From a virus: DNA of 64,000 nucleotides. Below are positions 13,496 through 23,451 of the stretch, in pieces; within the stretch, counting starts at the first letter, position 1, and every line of letters begins with the position of its first letter. Where the stretch lies: IMG/VR virus record IMGVR_UViG_3300044729_001198, positions 122,632 to 186,631 of that record; one strand, written 5' to 3'. The position numbers and the translations under genes were made by a program. Below the pieces are notes generated by a model. It had not been told where the DNA came from. It searched no databases and was given only the letters and a program-made list of their open reading frames with translations.

Positions 13496-14410
13496 TTAGA
13501 TACTTGTTATAATATTTAACATCATCGCCATCACGTTAATTTCTTTGTCTACTACCATTGAGTCTTTGTATTGACCATCTGCGATGTTTAGAATAGTCTG
13601 ACCCACTTTGTTGTTAGCGTATTCATCAACTCGGTCGTACAACAAACGATACAACGGAGTGAAATCTTTTACACCCGAATCTGCAATGATTTGACGTACA
13701 CTTACAAATTTAGATTTAGCATCACCATTACCTTGAAGAACCTTGACAACCTCTTCAGCATAATTCGCCTGAATTGTGGATTGTTTGTCGATTACTAACT
13801 TCTTGTTGATGACTTGTCGTTGAGCTGCGTTTAACACCCTACGAATGTCAGGATATCCACTATTAACAAGAACAGCAAGGTCCGACATTTCAAACTCAAC
13901 ACCTTCAGTTGTTAGAATATCATTCAATCGTTTTGCAACATCCTTTTTTGATGGTGGTGTAATAGCAAACGTTTGACAACGTGATTGAATTGGGTCGATG
14001 ATTTTTTCGACATAGTTACACGTCAAAATGAATCGGGTCGACTTACTAAAAGTTTCCATCAAATTACGGAGAGCTGCTTGAGCATTTGGTGTCAAGTAAT
14101 CAGACTCATCCAAAATAATGATTTTCCACTTTCTGAATCCCATTGATGAAGCGAACCCACGGATTTTGTCACGAACCGTGTCAACGTTGTTCTCATCAGA
14201 TGCGTTGATGTACATGACATCACAATCAATCTGATTTGTAATGATTTTAGCCAATGTGGTTTTACCCGTACCGGCTTGACCATACAACAGCAAATGTGGT
14301 ACGTCTTCGTTCTCAATGTAGATTTTTACTTTCTCAAGGATATGTTCGTTTCCGACATAACCTTCTAACGTATCGGGTCTATATTTTTCAACCCATAATG
14401 TATTACTCAT
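13496..14410 (-). CDS. gp44: Clamp loader AAA+ subunit (T4 gp44/RFC-like)
   Basis: WVEKYRP, GQAGTGKT, NASD, ILDESD, SRC; start at 14410 (ATGA overlap). Confidence 0.95.
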   Translation of the reverse strand: MSNTLWVEKYRPDTLEGYVGNEHILEKVKIYIENEDVPHLLLYGQAGTGKTTLAKIITNQIDCDVMYINASDENNVDTVRDKIRGFASSMGFRKWKIIILDESDYLTPNAQAALRNLMETFSKSTRFILTCNYVEKIIDPIQSRCQTFAITPPSKKDVAKRLNDILTTEGVEFEMSDLAVLVNSGYPDIRRVLNAAQRQVINKKLVIDKQSTIQANYAEEVVKVLQGNGDAKSKFVSVRQIIADSGVKDFTPLYRLLYDRVDEYANNKVGQTILNIADGQYKDSMVVDKEINVMAMMLNIITSI

Positions 14411-15597
14411 CTTCCTACTTCGTTTAAATACTTTTCTTTTGCGGCTTCCCAAGACATACCAATAATATCAAGGTAAAATAATGGTTCTGGTTTTATACGA
14501 CCCTCTTCGTGTAGTTTCTCATAACGAGATACTGCCTTCTTTTTCCACCAATTCATAGTGTATTCATCGCCTTTAGCAAATTTGTCTTTTAATACCAATT
14601 GGTCTTCGGTGATTTCATTTCGGAGAAACTCATTACCATTCTCATACATTTGAGCAAAGTATACACCCCTCTTAAATCCATGTTGATATTTAGAAGATTT
14701 GATACCAAGCTCCTTGAATATCATATTAATGATTTTTTGTTTTACTCCGGTAGCAGGTCCATCGACATTTGCCTTTTCAGCAGTTTGTCTTGCGTATTCT
14801 TCCGGCTGATTTTCCTTCATCCAATGATGCCATACTTCATATACCGAATCATCTGGTTTAGTAGCAACCTTACCTGCGGACTCACCAAGTGTTTTGAAGT
14901 GTGGGATGCCATTGTATTGTGAATGGATTCCATACAAAGATGTAGTACCGACAGCAATCAAAGTCTGACCATACTTTTCTTTCCAATACTTTCTTACGAT
15001 TGGTGATGTAGCCATACAAGCAATCAACTTACCACCCAAGAAGTTGTATCCCAATGGTTGGGTACATACAATAGTAGTAGCAATTGTTGTATGATTTAAT
15101 TTACCATCTTTGTATTTGTTGTCTTGAGTCCACCCAATATAAGCATCCCTTACACCCAAAGAGGTGACATCTGAACCTAACGAAATCATACCTAATACCT
15201 TACCACTAACTCGGTCTTTAACATAAATCTTGACATTACGACCGGGATTGGCTGAAAAAGCCATGGTGTGAATTAGTTTACGGATTTCAGTCCAACGAGT
15301 CGATTCTTTAGAATCATCAACAATCTCTACATAGGGTTCGAGTGCCATAACCTCTTTTATAGTTTGTTCTTTATTATAGATGTCAGTTGGCATCCACAAA
15401 GAATCAATATAAGTAGCCATAGCAGCCTTCCTCTTCATTGAGGATGGTAGGTCGGAATTCCACTCTTCCCATTTCTTGTAAAGAGTTTGTTCTTCAACAG
15501 ACATAGAAGAAAGGTAGTCCATATTATCTATGAACTTTTTCTTTTCAGCCGTGTAGTCGAACTCCGGTTTCGCTGGTTCAGTATCCCAAAAACTCAT
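14407..15597 (-). CDS. DUF4338/DruA-like protein (putative GNAT-like fold)
   Basis: NPGRNVK, GKVLGMISLGSD, RD.YIGW, PLGYNFLGGKLIA, TTSLYG..SQYN motifs recalled from DUF4338. Confidence 0.65.
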   Translation of the reverse strand: MSFWDTEPAKPEFDYTAEKKKFIDNMDYLSSMSVEEQTLYKKWEEWNSDLPSSMKRKAAMATYIDSLWMPTDIYNKEQTIKEVMALEPYVEIVDDSKESTRWTEIRKLIHTMAFSANPGRNVKIYVKDRVSGKVLGMISLGSDVTSLGVRDAYIGWTQDNKYKDGKLNHTTIATTIVCTQPLGYNFLGGKLIACMATSPIVRKYWKEKYGQTLIAVGTTSLYGIHSQYNGIPHFKTLGESAGKVATKPDDSVYEVWHHWMKENQPEEYARQTAEKANVDGPATGVKQKIINMIFKELGIKSSKYQHGFKRGVYFAQMYENGNEFLRNEITEDQLVLKDKFAKGDEYTMNWWKKKAVSRYEKLHEEGRIKPEPLFYLDIIGMSWEAAKEKYLNEVGR

Positions 15598-16292
15598 TAC
15601 TTAATCTCTACTAAATAGTAATTAGATTTAAACCCATCATGTTCGAATGCAACATGAGCAAGACCTTGAGACGAAATCTTCAAAGAAGATGCTTTTGCAC
15701 CTCGGTTAGCATTCAAGATTTCTTTAAGGTATTTAGCCGAGAATGAAATTGGTTCAACGTCAGATACACAAGTACACTCAACGTTGATGGAAATTCGGTT
15801 CGAGTTAATTTTAGAATATCCCAAAATAACCTCACCTTTGTTACCCTTACACTTAAATGTAAATGTGTCGGAGTCACTCAAAGCACCTTTTGATTTGATG
15901 AACTTACCAACGAACTCATCGTCAAGTGTAACGTTTGAACCAAACTCCGGAAGAGTTTTCAGTTCAGGAACTACAGGAATTACTGACAAGTCAGCCAACA
16001 TATAGTTTACAGACGTACCATTGTCTGAAAATACTAATGATGCCTCACCTTGTTCTACTTTGACGTTTGAATCCAAAACACCAAGAAGACCTTTTAGTTG
16101 TGAAGTCGTGTAAACACCAAACTCACCATTTGGAAATTCTTTCTCTTCAGTCTCAACACTACCCAATAGGGTTTTGTCATCGGAGATGAATCGAACAGAC
16201 ATTCCTTCATCAGTTGAGTTGATTTTTACGGATTCAACCTCACCACCCAAATTGTAACGGGCTACAAACCCTTCAAATGAACTTTTTTTCAT
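15597..16292 (-). CDS. gp45: Sliding clamp (T4 gp45-like)
   Basis: Size, FGVYTTSQL..LL, FSAKYLK motifs; next to the clamp loader. Confidence 0.75.
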   Translation of the reverse strand: MKKSSFEGFVARYNLGGEVESVKINSTDEGMSVRFISDDKTLLGSVETEEKEFPNGEFGVYTTSQLKGLLGVLDSNVKVEQGEASLVFSDNGTSVNYMLADLSVIPVVPELKTLPEFGSNVTLDDEFVGKFIKSKGALSDSDTFTFKCKGNKGEVILGYSKINSNRISINVECTCVSDVEPISFSAKYLKEILNANRGAKASSLKISSQGLAHVAFEHDGFKSNYYLVEIK

Positions 16293-16312: not shown

Positions 16313-16344
16313 CAAATATACGAAATTATTTTGAATTATCCAAA
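16313..16344 (-). promoter_or_regulatory. Bacteroidota-type promoter
   Basis: TTTG-N20-TATATTTG upstream of the sliding clamp. Confidence 0.75.
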
Positions 16345-16947
16345 CCATTGGTGGATTTTTTGCTTTCTTTTTTTGAATCGGTAAATGTAAATGTTCTTTG
16401 TAAGGGTTTCCACATACTTAGCACTTCCATCATCCAATGCGTTTTTCAATTCAATAGCAACGGGCTTTAGTTTCCCATTGTGTTTGTTTCTTAAAGTTTT
16501 GTCGTGATACCTACGACCATTCCACATAATAACCCTTCCGGCTGAAGTTTCACCTACACATTCAAAGTTTGTAGCTTTATAAACCACACCTTCATGTCCA
16601 AATGTTTTATCAGCATATGAGATTATCATTTCTAAATCAGTATTTCGTTGTAACCACCGAAGCGTCCAACCTATGAAATAAGATTCAGTATTCTTTGGAG
16701 TATCATCAATACACACGAGTCGTTTTAACTCCAAAATCTTTGATGGATTGTTGGTGTACTTTTCAGCAACCCCAACCATACCCAACGACCCATACACCAT
16801 AGCACCAATCATAGTATCACCATCCATCAACTTAAAGCAATATGAAATGTGTAATCCATTCATATTTTTTGAATAGTGATGAGTTTCCACAAATTTTACA
16901 ATCTCACTCCGTGGACATAATTCTACTATGTAATTGGTTACACTCAT
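16336..16947 (-). CDS. Mom-like GNAT DNA-modification protein (copy 1)
   Basis: HYS, GAMVYG, LELKRL, NTESYFIG, ISYAD..GHEG.VYKATNF. Confidence 0.75.
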   Translation of the reverse strand: MSVTNYIVELCPRSEIVKFVETHHYSKNMNGLHISYCFKLMDGDTMIGAMVYGSLGMVGVAEKYTNNPSKILELKRLVCIDDTPKNTESYFIGWTLRWLQRNTDLEMIISYADKTFGHEGVVYKATNFECVGETSAGRVIMWNGRRYHDKTLRNKHNGKLKPVAIELKNALDDGSAKYVETLTKNIYIYRFKKRKQKIHQWFG

Positions 16948-17160: not shown

Positions 17161-19683
17161 TTAAAATCCAAAAAATTGTGATGCTTTTTCAAGATTTGGG
17201 TTTGGTTTATCCCAACCCATAGCATCGTAGAAGTCGGTAATCTTGTTTTCCAACTCTTTTTCCCAAATCAAGTCCACATCGATGTGTTGACGAATCATGT
17301 CTTCAATTTGAGTTGGGTCGTTATGACCGGTGAAAGCCGTTGCCTCAATTCCAAGTGGGTTCTTTTTAAGATATACCCATTTGATTTTATCACCATCCTT
17401 CATAGGTTCATATTTGTAAGGAGCATCAAAGAATTTCAACAATCGATTGTACGTTATAGCAGCCTTAACGTGTGCTGGTGTACCTTTCTCAAACTCATTC
17501 AAAGAATATACGTTTCGCTTCTTGATATACTTTGACATATCTTTCACAGCAGAGTTCTTTGCGATATCCACGAAATTTTGGTCTGACATCTTGTCTTTGA
17601 ACTCAATAATCTTTGCGTCAATTTCTGATTTGTTAACACCTTTTAGGATATCCAACAACACAGTCTCCATTACCTTTTTAAAATATGTTGGGAATGATGA
17701 CCTACGAACATCCAATCCTTTTACATCCATCTTATCACACGGAACAGTATTGTCGTTGATAATCCATTGAGCATATCTTTTCTTTGATACCCAAAATCCA
17801 CCTTTTGCAATAGTTTCTTGTTTGATGTCAAATCGGTGAGAATTCACATTGAACAATTTTTTAGACATTGTGTCATAGACCTTGTTGATGTGTTCTTGAA
17901 CTTCTTTAGCTACCGACAAAATAGCGGGAACCATTTGTTCATCGGATGTGGGGTCAATATCTGGATTTCTGGCTTGAACCAATGGTAGTGCTTGATAAAA
18001 CACGGAGTCGGTATCGGTATACACGTTATAGTCTCCATCCTTACCAATGATTTTTGTGTAGTATTGGTTAGCTATCTTTTCAGTAGTCTTAATTACAGTT
18101 TGACCGGTGATAGTGGTAGCTTCAGCATTATCCACATCGTAGAATCTAAACGATGGTAATCCCAATACCCCATACAATGAGTTCAACATAATCTTTTGAA
18201 CTAACTGACGTTGGGAATAAAATTTGTAAAGGTCGGTCTTACCTTCCTTACCATATTGTTTTTCCAACTTTCGATACTCAACACGTTTATCAAACCACAC
18301 ATTTAAGATTTCAGGTATAACCCCAATCTTGTCTTGGGTGTATAAAACACCATTTGATGAAATTGAATAGTTAGATTCTTGGATTAGCTTTTGAAACTGT
18401 TCTTTATTCAAAGGTGGATATTGTGTACCATTTTCTTCGACAATTACATAAGACTCAATCATGTCTTTCATATAATCCTCTGAAGAGAATGATTTTAACT
18501 TACCAATCTTGGTTTCGGGGCTAACATTCAATGTCATAATGATAGATGGATATAGAGATGTCAAGTCCAAGTCATATACCCACTTGTAAAGACCAGGTTT
18601 TGGTTCTTTAACATAAGCACCTGTAAACTTTTCTTCACCATCAGTACCATCCTCATTTTTATCAGCTCTATGAGGTTTGTCAGGAGCAACACGGCCGCTC
18701 CTACGCAAGAACGTCAAGATAGCACCTTCTAACCATTTTGATGAGAATAAGAAATCTTCATAGAAAACGTGACCGGCGTGACAAATCGCTTGAGCAAGTT
18801 CAATGAACTGAAGTTTTTTATCCATGTCTACCACCAACTCAACGTCAACCAAGTTGTACTCAATGAATTTTTCAATGTCATCACGGAACAATTGGTCAAG
18901 ATTACCCTTGTATTCAATTTTACCACGACCCAATACGATATTAGCGATGGTGTCCAATCGATAGTTAGGGAATTCTTGGTAGGTAAAGTTTTTGTAGAGA
19001 GCCAAGTAGTCCAAACAACTCACCCCAGCAATGATATAACGATTACGATATTTGTTGTACCCAATCTTACCAATAGGCGATAGTTTGTTTGCCATTCGTT
19101 CACCCACAACATTCTTGAGTCGATTGTACAAATATGTAATATCAAAGTAGTCAATATTCCAACCCGTTACAATTGTTGGATTAATTTCTTGCCACTTGTT
19201 TAAGAATGATACCAATAGGTCTTCTTCAGTATCGAATGAACGAACCTCGGCTCCTTTAATACGTTTGTTAATATTACCACCCTTACTTACAACATATACA
19301 AAGTAATCGTTTGTAACCGAATCATGTCCTGCGATTGATGTAATCTCATTTTCAGCTTTATTGATATCTGGAAGACCAGAATTCATCTCAACCTCAATAT
19401 CGAATGTCAAGACTGTATGACCTGTAGATACTTCATCTGAATCGCCATACTCGTCAATCAAGAAACGAGTTACCTCGTTCACATCAGATTCGTATAGTTT
19501 TAGATTATCTTCTTTTTTCCAAAAGTTTATCTTTTTAAGACGCTCTCCGTGAATAGAAGTAAAAGCACCACTCCCATCTCTAACATAAGCATATCTACGG
19601 TACTTACTTGTAAAATAACCCTTTTTGTCATCCCAACAATGGATGATACTTTGTTCCTTATCATAGTATACATTTTGATACAT
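17161..19683 (-). CDS. gp43: Family B DNA polymerase (T4 gp43-like)
   Basis: Exo FDIE, GWNIDYFD, YNLVD; pol DLTSLYPS, K..LNSLYG, YTDTDS. Confidence 0.97.
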   Translation of the reverse strand: MYQNVYYDKEQSIIHCWDDKKGYFTSKYRRYAYVRDGSGAFTSIHGERLKKINFWKKEDNLKLYESDVNEVTRFLIDEYGDSDEVSTGHTVLTFDIEVEMNSGLPDINKAENEITSIAGHDSVTNDYFVYVVSKGGNINKRIKGAEVRSFDTEEDLLVSFLNKWQEINPTIVTGWNIDYFDITYLYNRLKNVVGERMANKLSPIGKIGYNKYRNRYIIAGVSCLDYLALYKNFTYQEFPNYRLDTIANIVLGRGKIEYKGNLDQLFRDDIEKFIEYNLVDVELVVDMDKKLQFIELAQAICHAGHVFYEDFLFSSKWLEGAILTFLRRSGRVAPDKPHRADKNEDGTDGEEKFTGAYVKEPKPGLYKWVYDLDLTSLYPSIIMTLNVSPETKIGKLKSFSSEDYMKDMIESYVIVEENGTQYPPLNKEQFQKLIQESNYSISSNGVLYTQDKIGVIPEILNVWFDKRVEYRKLEKQYGKEGKTDLYKFYSQRQLVQKIMLNSLYGVLGLPSFRFYDVDNAEATTITGQTVIKTTEKIANQYYTKIIGKDGDYNVYTDTDSVFYQALPLVQARNPDIDPTSDEQMVPAILSVAKEVQEHINKVYDTMSKKLFNVNSHRFDIKQETIAKGGFWVSKKRYAQWIINDNTVPCDKMDVKGLDVRRSSFPTYFKKVMETVLLDILKGVNKSEIDAKIIEFKDKMSDQNFVDIAKNSAVKDMSKYIKKRNVYSLNEFEKGTPAHVKAAITYNRLLKFFDAPYKYEPMKDGDKIKWVYLKKNPLGIEATAFTGHNDPTQIEDMIRQHIDVDLIWEKELENKITDFYDAMGWDKPNPNLEKASQFFGF

Positions 19684-20816
19684 TATCCGTTTAGTTTTTT
19701 ATGTAATTCTTGAATCATCTTGTCTTCGTTCAAAGATAGCTCCATTGCTCTTTGAAGTGACAATTTGTCTTGTTCTTGTCTGAATGTGTCATCATCCAAC
19801 ATTTTATCTAAATACGCAAAGAATTCTTTCTTGGTCTTAAAGAACATTCCGTTTGGGTCAATCTCATAGTAACAATCAGATTCTTGCCAAATCATTGGAG
19901 TTCCGTTCATCATACAATCCGTACCACTAACCGACCACCCATAGTTGGTTTGTCTCATCTGAACCCCAACCTTACAATTCTGAAGTCGTTGATAGTATTC
20001 GTGTTTTGGAACTTTTGTGTTGTCAATCCACGAGTGTGGAGCGTCACCTACTAATTGTGGAATCCAAACATTGAAGTCTTGTCGTTGTGTACGATACTCT
20101 TCCATCAATTCAATAAACTTTGGATATCCTTTGTATGCGGCCGCTCGATGGTTGAATACGATGGTATTTTCTTTTGAAAGTTTTACATCACCAACTATTT
20201 TATCTTGAGGTACACCCAAATTCCATACCTTTAAAATACCATCTAATTTTTGAACAAACTCATGGTTAAAAGTCTCCATTGCCTCATTTAAAACTCTATC
20301 TTTTTGGTCTTGGGTGTTAAGATAACAGACATCCATTTGTGATACTCCAAGGATTTCTATTGGTAACCACAACCATTTAGCTTTTCCAGCTCTATTGTCA
20401 GGCCCATTACATGACTTCATTTCCCACCAATGACAATAACCTACAATTTTAGTGTCCATTGATTTCTTGTATCTACCCACTTGCGGCCAGTCCGGTAAAT
20501 GTGAGTAGATTACATCATAATCAATGTCTTTCAGTAGGTTGATTAGTTTTGGAGATGGGAATGACCTCTGATTCATCATATCACCGGGAATATCAATCTG
20601 ATGTTGCTTGACGTTTGGCAAGTTCAACTTCTTACTGATTTTACCACTTGGCATGAGTATGTTCCAATAATACTCACCATATGATTCTAATGCTTTGATA
20701 TGATTATGTATCACATCTACAAAAGAATCTTTATCAATATTAGAAGAGTTGGTGATGTTCGGTATCACCAACACTTTCCGTGCTTTATTATAATCTATAC
20801 TATCCCAAAAACTCAT
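19683..20816 (-). CDS. GT-B fold glycosyltransferase coupled to PolB (possible DNA glycosyltransferase)
   Basis: IVFNHR...YKG, Y..L..CKVG, YGWSVS..D.MMNGTP; TAATG overlap with polB. Confidence 0.6.
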   Translation of the reverse strand: MSFWDSIDYNKARKVLVIPNITNSSNIDKDSFVDVIHNHIKALESYGEYYWNILMPSGKISKKLNLPNVKQHQIDIPGDMMNQRSFPSPKLINLLKDIDYDVIYSHLPDWPQVGRYKKSMDTKIVGYCHWWEMKSCNGPDNRAGKAKWLWLPIEILGVSQMDVCYLNTQDQKDRVLNEAMETFNHEFVQKLDGILKVWNLGVPQDKIVGDVKLSKENTIVFNHRAAAYKGYPKFIELMEEYRTQRQDFNVWIPQLVGDAPHSWIDNTKVPKHEYYQRLQNCKVGVQMRQTNYGWSVSGTDCMMNGTPMIWQESDCYYEIDPNGMFFKTKKEFFAYLDKMLDDDTFRQEQDKLSLQRAMELSLNEDKMIQELHKKLNG

Positions 20817-21294: not shown

Positions 21295-22089
21295 TTACCA
21301 AAAGTTTACTTTATTTTCCGGCTCGTAAGTTTCGTATCGTTCTGCCTTTGGTAGAATATCATTGATATCTTTTGGTGGAGTTTCACATGGGTGTTTCAAA
21401 GAATTCAACAACTTTTTCTTTTCAGACTTGTTCGTTGGTAGAATTTGAATGTATCGTAGTTTGGACATTTCTTTTCTACGCCAGAACTCTTTATACCCAT
21501 CCTTACCAATTTCAGTTTTGAGGTGTTCCAAGTTATGTGACCCCCAACGTGAGAATACAGTCCGTGAATGAATGTACTGACCATCCTCACCTTCCAAACA
21601 AATTCCATAATTTGGCATTAATTGTATTTTGTTTGTATCTTGAAATAACCAATTCGTAGCACGATAGATACCACCCAAGTGACCTTGGAACGGGTCTGAA
21701 TATGATAGTAACATTTTGATATTTGGAGCGTGTTCTCTCATCCACTTAAATGTTTGACCCAAAGCGTATGATTCAATATTAGACCCATACCCATCGTGAA
21801 TGAACAATCGAGTCAACTCTAAACATTGGTCATTACCCAACCCATCAATTATTGAGGTTACAGCCGACCTGCCAACAGGAAATCCATAGACAGCAACACC
21901 AATCAGTTTTTCATCATTACCAAGAATGTCTTTCTCATCGGTTTTGTAAAACACACCCAATGCGTATCTACACATGGTCCAAGCGTGCGAATAGTGATAC
22001 GTTACAATCATATCTTTTGCAATCGCTTTGTTAATCTCACGAATTGATACTCGTGAGGTGTCCACATAATGTTTATTTTCCTGTTTCAA
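21295..22089 (-). CDS. Mom-like GNAT DNA-modification protein (copy 2)
   Basis: HYSHAW, GVAVYG.P, LELTRLFI, NIESY, SYSDP.QGH.G.IY.ATNW; TTG start at 22089 gives MKQENKHYVDTSRV, which aligns with the copy 3 N-terminus. Confidence 0.75.
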   Translation of the reverse strand: MKQENKHYVDTSRVSIREINKAIAKDMIVTYHYSHAWTMCRYALGVFYKTDEKDILGNDEKLIGVAVYGFPVGRSAVTSIIDGLGNDQCLELTRLFIHDGYGSNIESYALGQTFKWMREHAPNIKMLLSYSDPFQGHLGGIYRATNWLFQDTNKIQLMPNYGICLEGEDGQYIHSRTVFSRWGSHNLEHLKTEIGKDGYKEFWRRKEMSKLRYIQILPTNKSEKKKLLNSLKHPCETPPKDINDILPKAERYETYEPENKVNFW

Positions 22090-22699
22090 AATTAAAAAAA
22101 TGAGAATGGGTAGTAGTTGAACTTTCGATGAAACTAGCCAAAAAGTCATGTAGTTTATAGTATGGTTTAACGATATTAGACCATTTATAATTTACTTCTT
22201 GATGCTGTACATCTTTGTCACATTCAATCTTGTCGTTGTTTACAAAAATTACATTTTCAATACCAGCAGGTAACATTCTTAAATATTTTGAATTTCCTGT
22301 ACATAAAACACCTTTACTGTCTTTCGTAATCACAATATATTTTATACCCATTTTATGGTATCTCTCAATGTGTAGAATGGAAGCATATGCTGAATTGTCT
22401 TGGAATGATGATTTTGATGATAGTATAAGTTGAACTTTTCCAAATGGGTCAATCAATACAAAATCAACATCGGGAATATCACCATTCCATGCAATTTGTT
22501 TAAAAATTTCACTTGTTGGTTTTGTACTACCTATGTGTACAATATCCCATCCGGAGTACCACCTTAAAATTCTCGTAACATCATCAACGAGATATTTTTC
22601 AAGAGCATCGCCTCTTAATTTAAGAATAGAACCTAAATGGCTCATTGCGTCTTTTTCTTCGGGTTTAATTAAATCGCCTAATAATTCTACTCCTGTCAT
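22073..22699 (-). CDS. Putative type II restriction-endonuclease-like PD-(D/E)XK protein
   Basis: RGDALEKYL, IPDVDFVL, LILSSKSSFQD. Confidence 0.5.
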   Translation of the reverse strand: MTGVELLGDLIKPEEKDAMSHLGSILKLRGDALEKYLVDDVTRILRWYSGWDIVHIGSTKPTSEIFKQIAWNGDIPDVDFVLIDPFGKVQLILSSKSSFQDNSAYASILHIERYHKMGIKYIVITKDSKGVLCTGNSKYLRMLPAGIENVIFVNNDKIECDKDVQHQEVNYKWSNIVKPYYKLHDFLASFIESSTTTHSHFFNFETGK

Positions 22700-23451
22700 T
22701 TTACAATTGGTTCTAATTTATGTATCTCTTCTTCAAAGACCTCACTTACTTTTGGATATGGTAGTGATGGATACTTCAATGTATCAAATATACGATTTTT
22801 TTTCGACTTATCCAAAATATAAACATATCTATGTTTCCTTGGTTCTTTTTTAATCCAAAATGGTTTATCTACCATTTCTTGTATTTTTGTAGGATTGTTT
22901 GTACCATATCTAACAAACGAAGTTCTACTATGATGCCATTCATCGGTTTCATCCCATTTGAATGACCACGAATCATTGGGTCGGATTCTATTACCTTGAT
23001 ATATCCAATTTGTAGACTGATACACAGTACCCAAGTGTCCTACTTTAGGGTCTGAATATGATACCAATGCTCTAATGTGTGGTACGTTTTGACGTAACCA
23101 TTTAAAGGTCTGGCTTACAAACCAACTTTCAATGTTACAACCATAACCATCAAATACAAATAGTCGGGTCAACTCAAGGACTTCAGTTCGGTCAAGAAGT
23201 GGAGAAATGGATTGGCCGGAGTGTCTACCTACAGGATCTCCATAAGTAGCAACTCCGACCAACTCTTCATTTACACCACTAAAAAATTGATGTTCACTTT
23301 CTGATTTGTAAAATAACCCAAGAGCATAAGATACCTTTGTCCAAATACCACTATAGTGATTGTTTACAATGATATCTTTTGCAATTGATTTTGCGATAGG
23401 TCTTACCGAAAATTTACTTATGTCAGAATAAAGTTTACCTTCAACTTTCAT
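22696..23451 (-). CDS. Mom-like GNAT DNA-modification protein (copy 3)
   Basis: HYSGIW, GVATYG.P, LELTRLFV, NIESWFV, SYSDP..GH.G.VYQ.TNW. Confidence 0.75.
   Translation of the reverse strand: MKVEGKLYSDISKFSVRPIAKSIAKDIIVNNHYSGIWTKVSYALGLFYKSESEHQFFSGVNEELVGVATYGDPVGRHSGQSISPLLDRTEVLELTRLFVFDGYGCNIESWFVSQTFKWLRQNVPHIRALVSYSDPKVGHLGTVYQSTNWIYQGNRIRPNDSWSFKWDETDEWHHSRTSFVRYGTNNPTKIQEMVDKPFWIKKEPRKHRYVYILDKSKKNRIFDTLKYPSLPYPKVSEVFEEEIHKLEPIVK

Follow-up and report, generated by a model that had tools for sequence, protein, structure and literature searches.

The Mom1-X-Mom2 locus

We analysed a stretch of 64,000 nucleotides (nt), hereafter the window, which comprises positions 122,632 to 186,631 of the IMG/VR virus record IMGVR_UViG_3300044729_001198, and in which two genes for Mom-like DNA-modifying proteins (Mom1 and Mom2) enclose a gene for a protein of 208 amino acids (aa), designated X here. 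The source record (G000) spans 186,631 bp and is estimated to be 98% complete, and the window corresponds to its right-hand 64 kb. Positions below are those of the window unless preceded by G000, and L001-L054 denote contigs carrying relatives or comparison regions. The family B DNA polymerase (PolB) encoded in the window shares 48.6% identity with the polymerase of Microcystis phage Mel-JY01 and ~32% with those of T4-like cyanophages, indicating that the phage is, as judged from its polymerase, a distant T4-like myovirus of aquatic origin.

The three genes lie on the minus strand, as do nearly all genes of the window, and are physically interlocked. The stop codon of Mom1 and the start codon of X share the tetranucleotide ATGA (22696-22699; TCAT on the plus strand), and X overlaps Mom2 by 17 nt, with the start of Mom2 placed at a TTG codon (22089-22087). 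This TTG is kept in four related contigs, and the N-terminus read from it aligns with Mom1 residue for residue. Mom2 almost certainly starts at TTG 22089, because the TTG is conserved, the upstream ATG is not, and the alignment with Mom1 runs from the very first residue. The ATG at 22149, which would give an 'MTFW' N-terminus, was rejected as it is not conserved in the relatives. The Mom-X-Mom arrangement is retained in close relatives that are 85-100% identical (L012, L014-L017 and L039). A reading made earlier from the nucleotide sequence of the window alone (the original prediction) had recognised both the paralogous Mom-like flanks and the overlaps on either side of X, and had proposed a restriction-modification (R-M) system protected by acylation instead of methylation; the paralogy and the overlaps were borne out in full, and the proposal itself is evaluated below.

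Fold and catalytic core of X

The AlphaFold2 model of X, which was built on the family alignment (predicted local distance difference test, pLDDT, 78; predicted template modelling score, pTM, 0.74), possesses an alpha-beta-beta-beta-alpha-beta core composed of helix 13-45, strands 52-55, 80-83 and 89-96, helix 101-116 and strand 120-125. In a VIA scan against 48,161 PDB representatives, the model was most similar to BsaWI (Z 13.2 over 176 residues), AgeI (11.3), PfoI (10.4), PspGI (9.9) and SgrAI (9.0), followed by Ecl18kI, Bse634I, NgoMIV, Kpn2I, EcoRII-C and Cfr10I, and the top protein other than a restriction enzyme appeared at Z 8.7. Foldseek, which had been suggested as a check on the middle gene, also recovered a nuclease fold, and its top matches were all enzymes of the CCGG family (BstEII, BsaWI, Ecl18kI, PspGI and AgeI). 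The best ESM Atlas cluster for X contained 618 members, 100% of which were RE_BsaWI (TM 0.65). X is predicted from this model to be a PD-(D/E)xK nuclease with the fold of the CCGG-family (BsaWI-like) type II restriction enzymes.

At the sequence level, 10 of the 15 X-family members matched the Pfam family RE_BsaWI (PF18643) at E values up to 1 (best E 1.4e-5), and X of the window scored 13.1 bits, under the gathering cut-off of 26.2. The relation between X and RE_BsaWI thus appears to be one of distant homology, not of family membership. No match to X was found by tblastn in 50,697 phage records or in PHROGs, NCBIfam and PADLOC, and a profile search with X against PDB sequences gave nothing meaningful. 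Longer, fused forms of X were not found, which is weak evidence. The Atlas feature search provided leads only, namely viral hypothetical proteins and a MunI-like protein at 0.90.

The motifs that had been read as an active site in the original prediction are present in X as G30..L33-E34, P76-D-V-D79 and S94-S-K96..D101, with D79, S95, K96 and D101 showing complete or almost complete conservation in the X family. In the model, D79 is located just before strand 2 and K96 closes strand 3, the places expected in a PD-(D/E)xK nuclease. The residue two positions before K96 is Ser in most members and Glu in the clade of L004, L046, L047 and P0014, which gives the canonical D-x15-E-x-K. The S-x-K variant is known from Cfr10I. 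The spacing of the X core parallels that of D145...K165 in BsaWI (PMC4652773).

Distribution and partners of the X family

An exhaustive HMMER search of 1.8 billion representatives yielded only ten X proteins, and a word-indexed search yielded seven X clusters, compared with 2518 for the sliding clamp. With so few clusters, X ranks as a rare accessory gene, which is typical of R-M genes. All X homologues came from marine or freshwater metagenomes, on contigs carrying phage-type genes.

In four lineages X adjoins a gene for a methyltransferase with the SPPY motif, and the two genes overlap in three of them. X is followed by an overlapping gene for a methyltransferase of ~410 aa in L018/L019 (X 45% identical), and in L046 and L047 (~28%), and the methyltransferase gene is found just before X, in inverted order, in L022 (36%). 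This partner carries DFSxGxG and TSPPY motifs and matches N6_N4_Mtase as well as PADLOC MTase_II (E 1.6e-9). The genes beyond the X-methyltransferase pair vary among lineages. In the maximum-likelihood tree of X, such pairs are placed on both sides of the midpoint root, and the Mom clade has L018 as its closest outgroup (support 83/91). Given pairs on both sides of the tree, differing neighbours and the inverted order in L022, the simplest reading of these sequence comparisons is that X and the methyltransferase constitute an R-M pair, in which the methyltransferase was probably replaced by Mom in the lineage of the window.

Co-occurrence of X with Mom across phages, which had been put forward as a check, was found in part. 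Most homologues have no adjacent Mom; four lineages adjoin a methyltransferase, and one of these, L018, stands beside the Mom clade. As a methyltransferase occupies the place of Mom, the R-M logic is strengthened, even though homologues of X are, taken literally, usually found without Mom.

Mom proteins and the search for a DNA methyltransferase

The phage encodes a third Mom-like protein (Mom3) in addition to the two flanking X. Mom1, Mom2 and Mom3 scored 154.6, 158.8 and 118.3 bits, respectively, against the Pfam Mom profile (cut-off 27.1). In an alignment of the three paralogues with Mom of phage Mu, the equivalents of R111 and S124, both essential in Mu Mom according to a 2026 study (PMC13219725), are invariant. 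Mom1 and Mom2 share 47% identity and Mom3 shares 33% with each of them, which argues for old paralogues over a fresh duplication.

In Mu, Mom carries out a Gly-tRNA-dependent modification of adenine N6, a chemistry resolved only recently; the co-substrate is Gly-tRNA(Gly/GCC), and in vitro the GCC isoacceptor sustains the reaction of Mu Mom (PMC13219725). The nine tRNA genes of the phage lie outside the window (G000:C1:66587-77395), and one of them, at G000:C1:74955-75028, is a tRNA-Gly(GCC). This tRNA may serve as the phage's own donor for the three Mom proteins, albeit its presence is only suggestive.

The earlier reading had noted that no DNA methyltransferase is visible in the window, and this absence extends to the whole 186.6-kb genome for the five families searched (PF01555, PF02086, PF00145, PF02384 and PF05869). 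The SPPY methyltransferase that accompanies relatives of X likewise had no match in the whole 186.6-kb genome.

A putative restriction-modification-like cassette

We lean towards the reading that Mom1-X-Mom2 is a phage-borne R-M-like cassette, in which X would cut unmarked DNA and the Mom proteins would protect the DNA of the phage. The support is comparative and structural, and comprises gene order, overlaps, fold, conserved residues, the switch of partner and the conservation of the C-terminal tail described below. The R-M interpretation offered originally gains weight from the nuclease fold predicted for X, from its methyltransferase-paired relatives and from the lack of methyltransferase matches in the genome. 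The ratios of nonsynonymous to synonymous divergence (dN/dS) are 0.09 for Mom1, 0.13-0.19 for X and 0.035 for Mom2; such low values (0.04-0.19) indicate that all three genes are under purifying selection and are functional.

The mechanism that follows, from cleavage and its target DNA to protection by Mom and docking on the clamp, is our inference. X would be an active endonuclease recognising a site not of the CCGG type, and would cut DNA devoid of the phage mark, be it that of the host or of competing phages. Mom1 and Mom2, and perhaps Mom3, would place a glycine-derived acyl group on adenine N6 in or beside the sites of X, so that phage DNA is spared. Mom1 and Mom2 would be co-translated with X. 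The ancestral partner of X would have been the SPPY DNA methyltransferase, which was exchanged for Mom in the clade of the window.

C-terminal tails and the sliding clamp

In the model, disorder (pLDDT <50) is seen over the C-terminal ~10 residues, which contain F201-F-N-F204; X ends in ..HFFNFETGK. The C-terminal motif [FY]F.[FW] is encountered repeatedly in the X family, and the tails of X and PolB resemble each other within the same genome: ..HFFNFETGK and ..ASQFFGF in the window, ..FFNFEK and ..KFFSF in L022, and ..FFDFI and ..KFFTFS in L018. The C-terminal tail of the RB69/T4 polymerase docks on the gp45 clamp (PMC6212786). Like that peptide, the motif of X is short, aromatic and located at the extreme C-terminus, in X apparently after a disordered linker. 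Because its tail resembles the clamp-binding end of PolB, X may carry a candidate sliding-clamp-binding peptide and could ride the clamp of the phage. The C-termini of Mom2 and Mom3 also bear aromatic pairs (NKVNFW and HQWFG, respectively). Aromatic tails of the PolB kind occur in ~10 of the 239 open reading frames (ORFs) of the genome, and the strict pattern [FY][FY].[FW] is restricted to PolB, X and two others. The ~10 include a 139-aa resolvase-like endonuclease (G000:C1:39493-39912, minus strand; locus L054; phrog_945, E 1.3e-52), which ends in ..TQSFF.

If these tails are genuinely functional, X and probably Mom2 and Mom3 would be assembled as a module on the sliding clamp by their polymerase-like ends. 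Mom would then restore the mark on hemi-modified daughter DNA once the fork has passed, and X would inspect DNA that carries a phage clamp and cleave whatever is unmarked. It is attractive to speculate that the locus represents a replisome-coupled R-M system, with X and the Mom proteins all docked on the clamp, and that it would be the first example in nature of a family of restriction nucleases exchanging a SAM-dependent methyltransferase partner for an enzyme of tRNA-dependent aminoacyl transfer. We put forward this extended version tentatively, as possible, with clearly less confidence than the cassette itself.

The same tails can be read differently. Restriction-like nucleases are able to work on a clamp, as exemplified by PCNA-bound NucS/EndoMS, and X could be a clamp-tethered nuclease for replication, recombination or repair, comparable with NucS/EndoMS or a resolvase. 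Its place among modification genes would then reflect only the replication block in which these phages gather all such genes, and Mom would act purely in counter-defence against host restriction, as in Mu. The polymerase-like tail conserved in X, the location of X, in several lineages, beside the genes for PolB, clamp and clamp loader, and the SFF end of the phrog_945 nuclease in the same genome are all compatible with this, as are the Z scores of ~8 obtained for the nucleases Bax1, NucC and Can2 in the VIA scan and the occurrence of Mom in hundreds of phages without any nuclease. Nevertheless, the rarity of X relative to the clamp speaks against a core replication factor, and type II restriction enzymes are the best structural matches, with a lead of over 4 Z units. 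In addition, X adjoins a modification gene in five lineages, and overlaps it in four, despite inversion and different neighbours, which is hard to explain by synteny alone. NucS itself is a weak structural match of X (Foldseek E 0.06). A clamp-tethered processing nuclease seems to us unlikely, and we continue with the R-M-like cassette as the preferred reading.

Observations that weigh against a Mom-protected cassette

Several observations do not fit readily with a cassette in which Mom protects phage DNA from X. First, most X homologues do not adjoin Mom. An X with 73% identity (L001/L050/L052) in a ~226-kb TARA phage has neither Mom nor a methyltransferase in ~32 kb, and the 31%-identical group of L004-L008 and L041 also lacks both within reach (for the metagenome records L001, L018 and L006, the presence of Mom was checked within 7-32 kb around X). 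X adjoins a GT-B glycosyltransferase gene in L035 and L036, with Mom 5 kb off in L035, and a GmrSD_N/NsnA-like gene in L028-L030, with the methyltransferase 4 kb off. Solitary copies of X are real counter-evidence. They show that an adjacent partner is not obligatory. In L028-L030, X starts 2 nt after the gene for a 550-aa GmrSD_N (DUF262)/NsnA-like protein (L028:624-2276, L029:3347-4999 and L030:3347-4999; PADLOC NsnA E 8.7e-13), and the two may form a different two-gene nuclease system built on the X family.

Second, the DNA of the phage does not appear to be generally resistant. GATC occurs 13 times in the genome, compared with 668 expected (z about -31), with the sites in the window at 23235, 25866, 40174, 41271 and 46362. 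AGTACT, GGTACC, ACATGT, GCTAGC and TACGTA are each present 0-1 times in the whole genome, where 15-40 occurrences are expected; CTNAG is also depleted, and CCGG and GCGC are enriched. Such avoidance of palindromes suggests heavy pressure from host type II restriction despite the three Mom proteins, and the phage DNA is not broadly restriction-proof. Moreover, Mu Mom marks a loose SAS context and ~20% of dA (PMC13219725), which does not imply that the Mom proteins of the window cover every site of X. In 32 kb of the TARA phage with the solitary X, CCGG (~14 expected) and GATC (~137 expected) are both absent, GGWCC occurs once and CCSGG is absent. Site avoidance was considered as a route to the target of X and discarded, because numerous further sites also distinguish the two phages, so that the signal is not attributable to X.

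These two sets of observations could be accommodated if X needs no protection by Mom, either because it is modification-dependent (type IV-like) and attacks DNA that bears a foreign mark, or because the phage avoids the sites of X in its own genome, Mom being an unrelated neighbour. The solitary copies, the missing CCGG and GATC of the TARA phage together with the scarce GATC of the source genome, and the GmrSD_N/NsnA-like neighbour in L028-L030 (GmrSD being a type IV enzyme) could all be taken in this sense. The structural relatives of X, however, are type II enzymes that are blocked by modification, and cleavage of this modification-blocked type also agrees with X being found repeatedly beside a methyltransferase or Mom; the spectra of avoided sites diverge between the two phages at many sites (GGWCC, CCSGG and CTNAG) and look like host pressure. 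We regard this explanation as very improbable.

Third, X departs from the enzymes that it resembles in the motif by which they read their site. The CCGG family reads the core of its site by an R-(D/E)R motif just after the catalytic Lys, R169-D170-R171 in BsaWI (PMC4652773). In X this motif is replaced, residues 4-6 after K96 being Q-D-N, and other members of the family have QDD, NDD, SDS, NEC and similar combinations, with arginine in none. Of the active-site variant PD...K...E, with its second acid on the following helix, D79 and K96 fit in X, and no clear second acid emerged: the near-invariant D101 falls at the D of R-D-R, and E112 is present in most members, not all. As no R-(D/E)R motif exists, X is not to be classed as a CCGG cutter. 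The original description of X as a 'Cfr10I/NgoMIV-type' enzyme therefore holds for the fold, as seen with VIA, Foldseek, the Atlas and PF18643, and for the catalytic core, and fails for specificity.

Lastly, the history of X may differ from that of its flanks. Between the window and L012 and L014, dS was 0.39-0.47 for X, 1.2-1.6 for Mom1 and 1.0 for Mom2. The 2-4 times lower dS of X hints that X was exchanged among relatives more recently than the Mom genes, or may move alone. X could accordingly be conceived as a selfish mobile nuclease, resembling a homing endonuclease or an addiction R gene, which inserted between pre-existing Mom genes and serves its own spread without otherwise benefiting the phage. 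Its patchy distribution and varied contexts agree with such a character, as does the proximity of homing-endonuclease genes or remnants, namely NUMOD3 in L018, HNH in L022 and the HNH-type helix-turn-helix (HTH) gene upstream of Mom1 in the window; PD-(D/E)xK homing endonucleases also exist (I-Bth0305I, Z 6.8 against X). On the other hand, the overlaps on both sides and the arrangement kept among relatives at dS 0.4-1.5 exclude a fresh insertion, the 47% identity between Mom1 and Mom2 is not that of a recently split or duplicated target, and the clamp-type tail found family-wide argues for integration in the physiology of the phage. R-M systems are mobile themselves, so that the two ideas overlap. 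A purely selfish X is, in our opinion, improbable, and the R-M-like cassette remains the interpretation that we favour.

Comparison with known systems

R-M systems are defined by methylation, and the only proven role of Mom is passive anti-restriction. To our knowledge, no Mom-based R-M system has been tested experimentally and none with an acyl or aminoacyl mark has been demonstrated; neither do we know of any restriction enzyme that uses a sliding clamp. Viral nucleases that destroy unmodified DNA while the modified viral genome is spared are known from T4, in which EndoII and EndoIV act alongside hydroxymethylcytosine, and from the type II R-M systems of chloroviruses. The role proposed for X, cutting unmarked and sparing marked DNA, would be the same. 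The differences are that the mark here would be N6-acyl-adenine made by a tRNA-dependent GNAT enzyme, that the nuclease belongs to another family, and that X is possibly clamp-tethered.

With BsaWI (PDB 4ZSF) and the CCGG family, X shares the PD-(D/E)xK fold, the weak but repeated RE_BsaWI matches and an Asp and a Lys at similar spacing. X is shorter (208 aa, compared with 270-310 aa), lacks the N-terminal helical domain, belongs to a family that is arginine-free where the CCGG family has R-(D/E)R, and adds a clamp-type C-terminal tail; unlike those enzymes, it is phage-encoded and paired with Mom. The Mom proteins of the window resemble Mu Mom in passing the Pfam Mom threshold and in keeping R111 and S124, and in both phages a small gene overlaps the start of mom. 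Mu has one Mom and no nuclease, and its Mom is purely anti-restriction, whereas the window has three Mom genes and X; the small upstream gene encodes a zinc finger (Com) in Mu and an HTH protein here. As the Mom proteins of the window are only 26-29% identical to Mu Mom, they may attach another acyl group and act in another sequence context.

A combination of Mom and a nuclease was already predicted by Iyer, Anantharaman, Krishnan, Burroughs and Aravind in 2021 (Viruses 13:63, section 3.4.7; PMC7824862), who described Mom fused to a restriction-fold nuclease in jumbo phages, with several Mom paralogues per phage, and proposed that momylation shields phage DNA and the nuclease attacks host or superinfecting DNA. 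Mom1-X-Mom2 follows the same proposed logic, also with multiple Mom paralogues, and both are predictions. In the jumbo phages, Mom and nuclease are parts of one protein, whereas here the nuclease is a separate gene of BsaWI-like fold with two flanking Mom genes and methyltransferase-paired relatives. In phage PA5oct (MK797984), the sole frame matching Pfam Mom (L038:406-2022; E 1.7e-5, below the threshold) encodes a fusion protein of 538 aa, in which zinc-finger and NUMOD3-like segments accompany a weak Vsr/MTES_1575-like one, and at E 0.01 PF25680 does not retrieve the published 'five momylating enzymes' of PA5oct. The nuclease domain of this fusion was considered as a homologue of X and rejected (hhalign probability 0.2).

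What is new here is the free-standing nuclease of BsaWI-like fold, its position between two Mom genes, the comparative evidence for a switch from methyltransferase to Mom, and the clamp-type tail conserved family-wide. Mom1-X-Mom2 offers a compact three-gene case, for which the methyltransferase-paired relatives of X are natural controls for the Mom mark as a 'self' label. If the R-M-like reading is true, restriction nucleases can swap modification chemistries, and the locus could yield a new small restriction enzyme together with a modification that blocks it. If the tail of X binds the clamp, restriction and modification would be linked to the replication fork. Marine and freshwater metagenomes contain phages of this group in abundance.

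Gene neighbourhood

The features of the locus and its surroundings are listed in Table 1. In the direction of transcription, the genes are ordered as follows: the 71-aa HTH gene, Mom1, X, Mom2, a 135-aa ORF, the GT-B-like glycosyltransferase, PolB, a 92-aa ORF, Mom3, the sliding clamp, the DruA-like gene and the clamp loader.

Table 1. Features of the Mom1-X-Mom2 locus and neighbouring genes, with positions in the window.
Feature	Position	Strand	Basis
HTH protein, 71 aa	23441-23656	-	Pfam HTH_28 E 0.002; PHROG ~1e-5
Mom1, 251 aa	22696-23451	-	PF25680 E 3.5e-45; phrog_1384 E 4.9e-52
X, 208 aa, predicted PD-(D/E)xK nuclease	22073-22699	-	BsaWI-like fold of AlphaFold2 model
X catalytic core, D79 (22463-22465) to S94-S95-K96 (22412-22420)	22412-22465	-	Conservation
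X C-terminal tail, residues 198-208, candidate clamp-binding peptide F201-F-N-F204	22076-22108	-	pLDDT <50; motif conservation
Mom2, 264 aa from TTG, C-terminal end NKVNFW	21295-22089	-	PF25680 E 1.8e-46
GT-B-like glycosyltransferase, upstream of PolB	19683-20816	-	GT-B-like
Family B DNA polymerase (PolB), C-terminus ASQFFGF	17161-19683	-	ORF; Mel-JY01 identity
Mom3, 203 aa, downstream of PolB, C-terminal end HQWFG	16336-16947	-	PF25680 E 4.7e-34
gp45-like sliding clamp, 231 aa, presumed docking partner of the tails	15597-16292	-	phrog_223 'DNA polymerase processivity factor' E 4.4e-11; JGI names homologues sliding clamp
DruA/DUF4338-like gene, between clamp and clamp loader	14407-15597	-	Pfam DruA E 1.3e-24

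The HTH gene overlaps the start of Mom1 by 11 nt, and a gene for a protein of 67-72 aa is found at the same place in L014 and L015. Its product is similar to the DNA-binding C-terminal part of HNH homing endonucleases (PHROG, E ~1e-5); it may regulate the cassette, or be what is left of a homing endonuclease's DNA-binding domain. The gene occupies the position of Com in Mu and of the controller protein in many R-M operons. A scan for promoters and terminators gave counts near chance.

DruA-like genes are also located near X homologues in L028 and L035. The DruA-like and GT-B-like proteins of the window share the N-terminal sequence MSFWD, which could be a docking motif.

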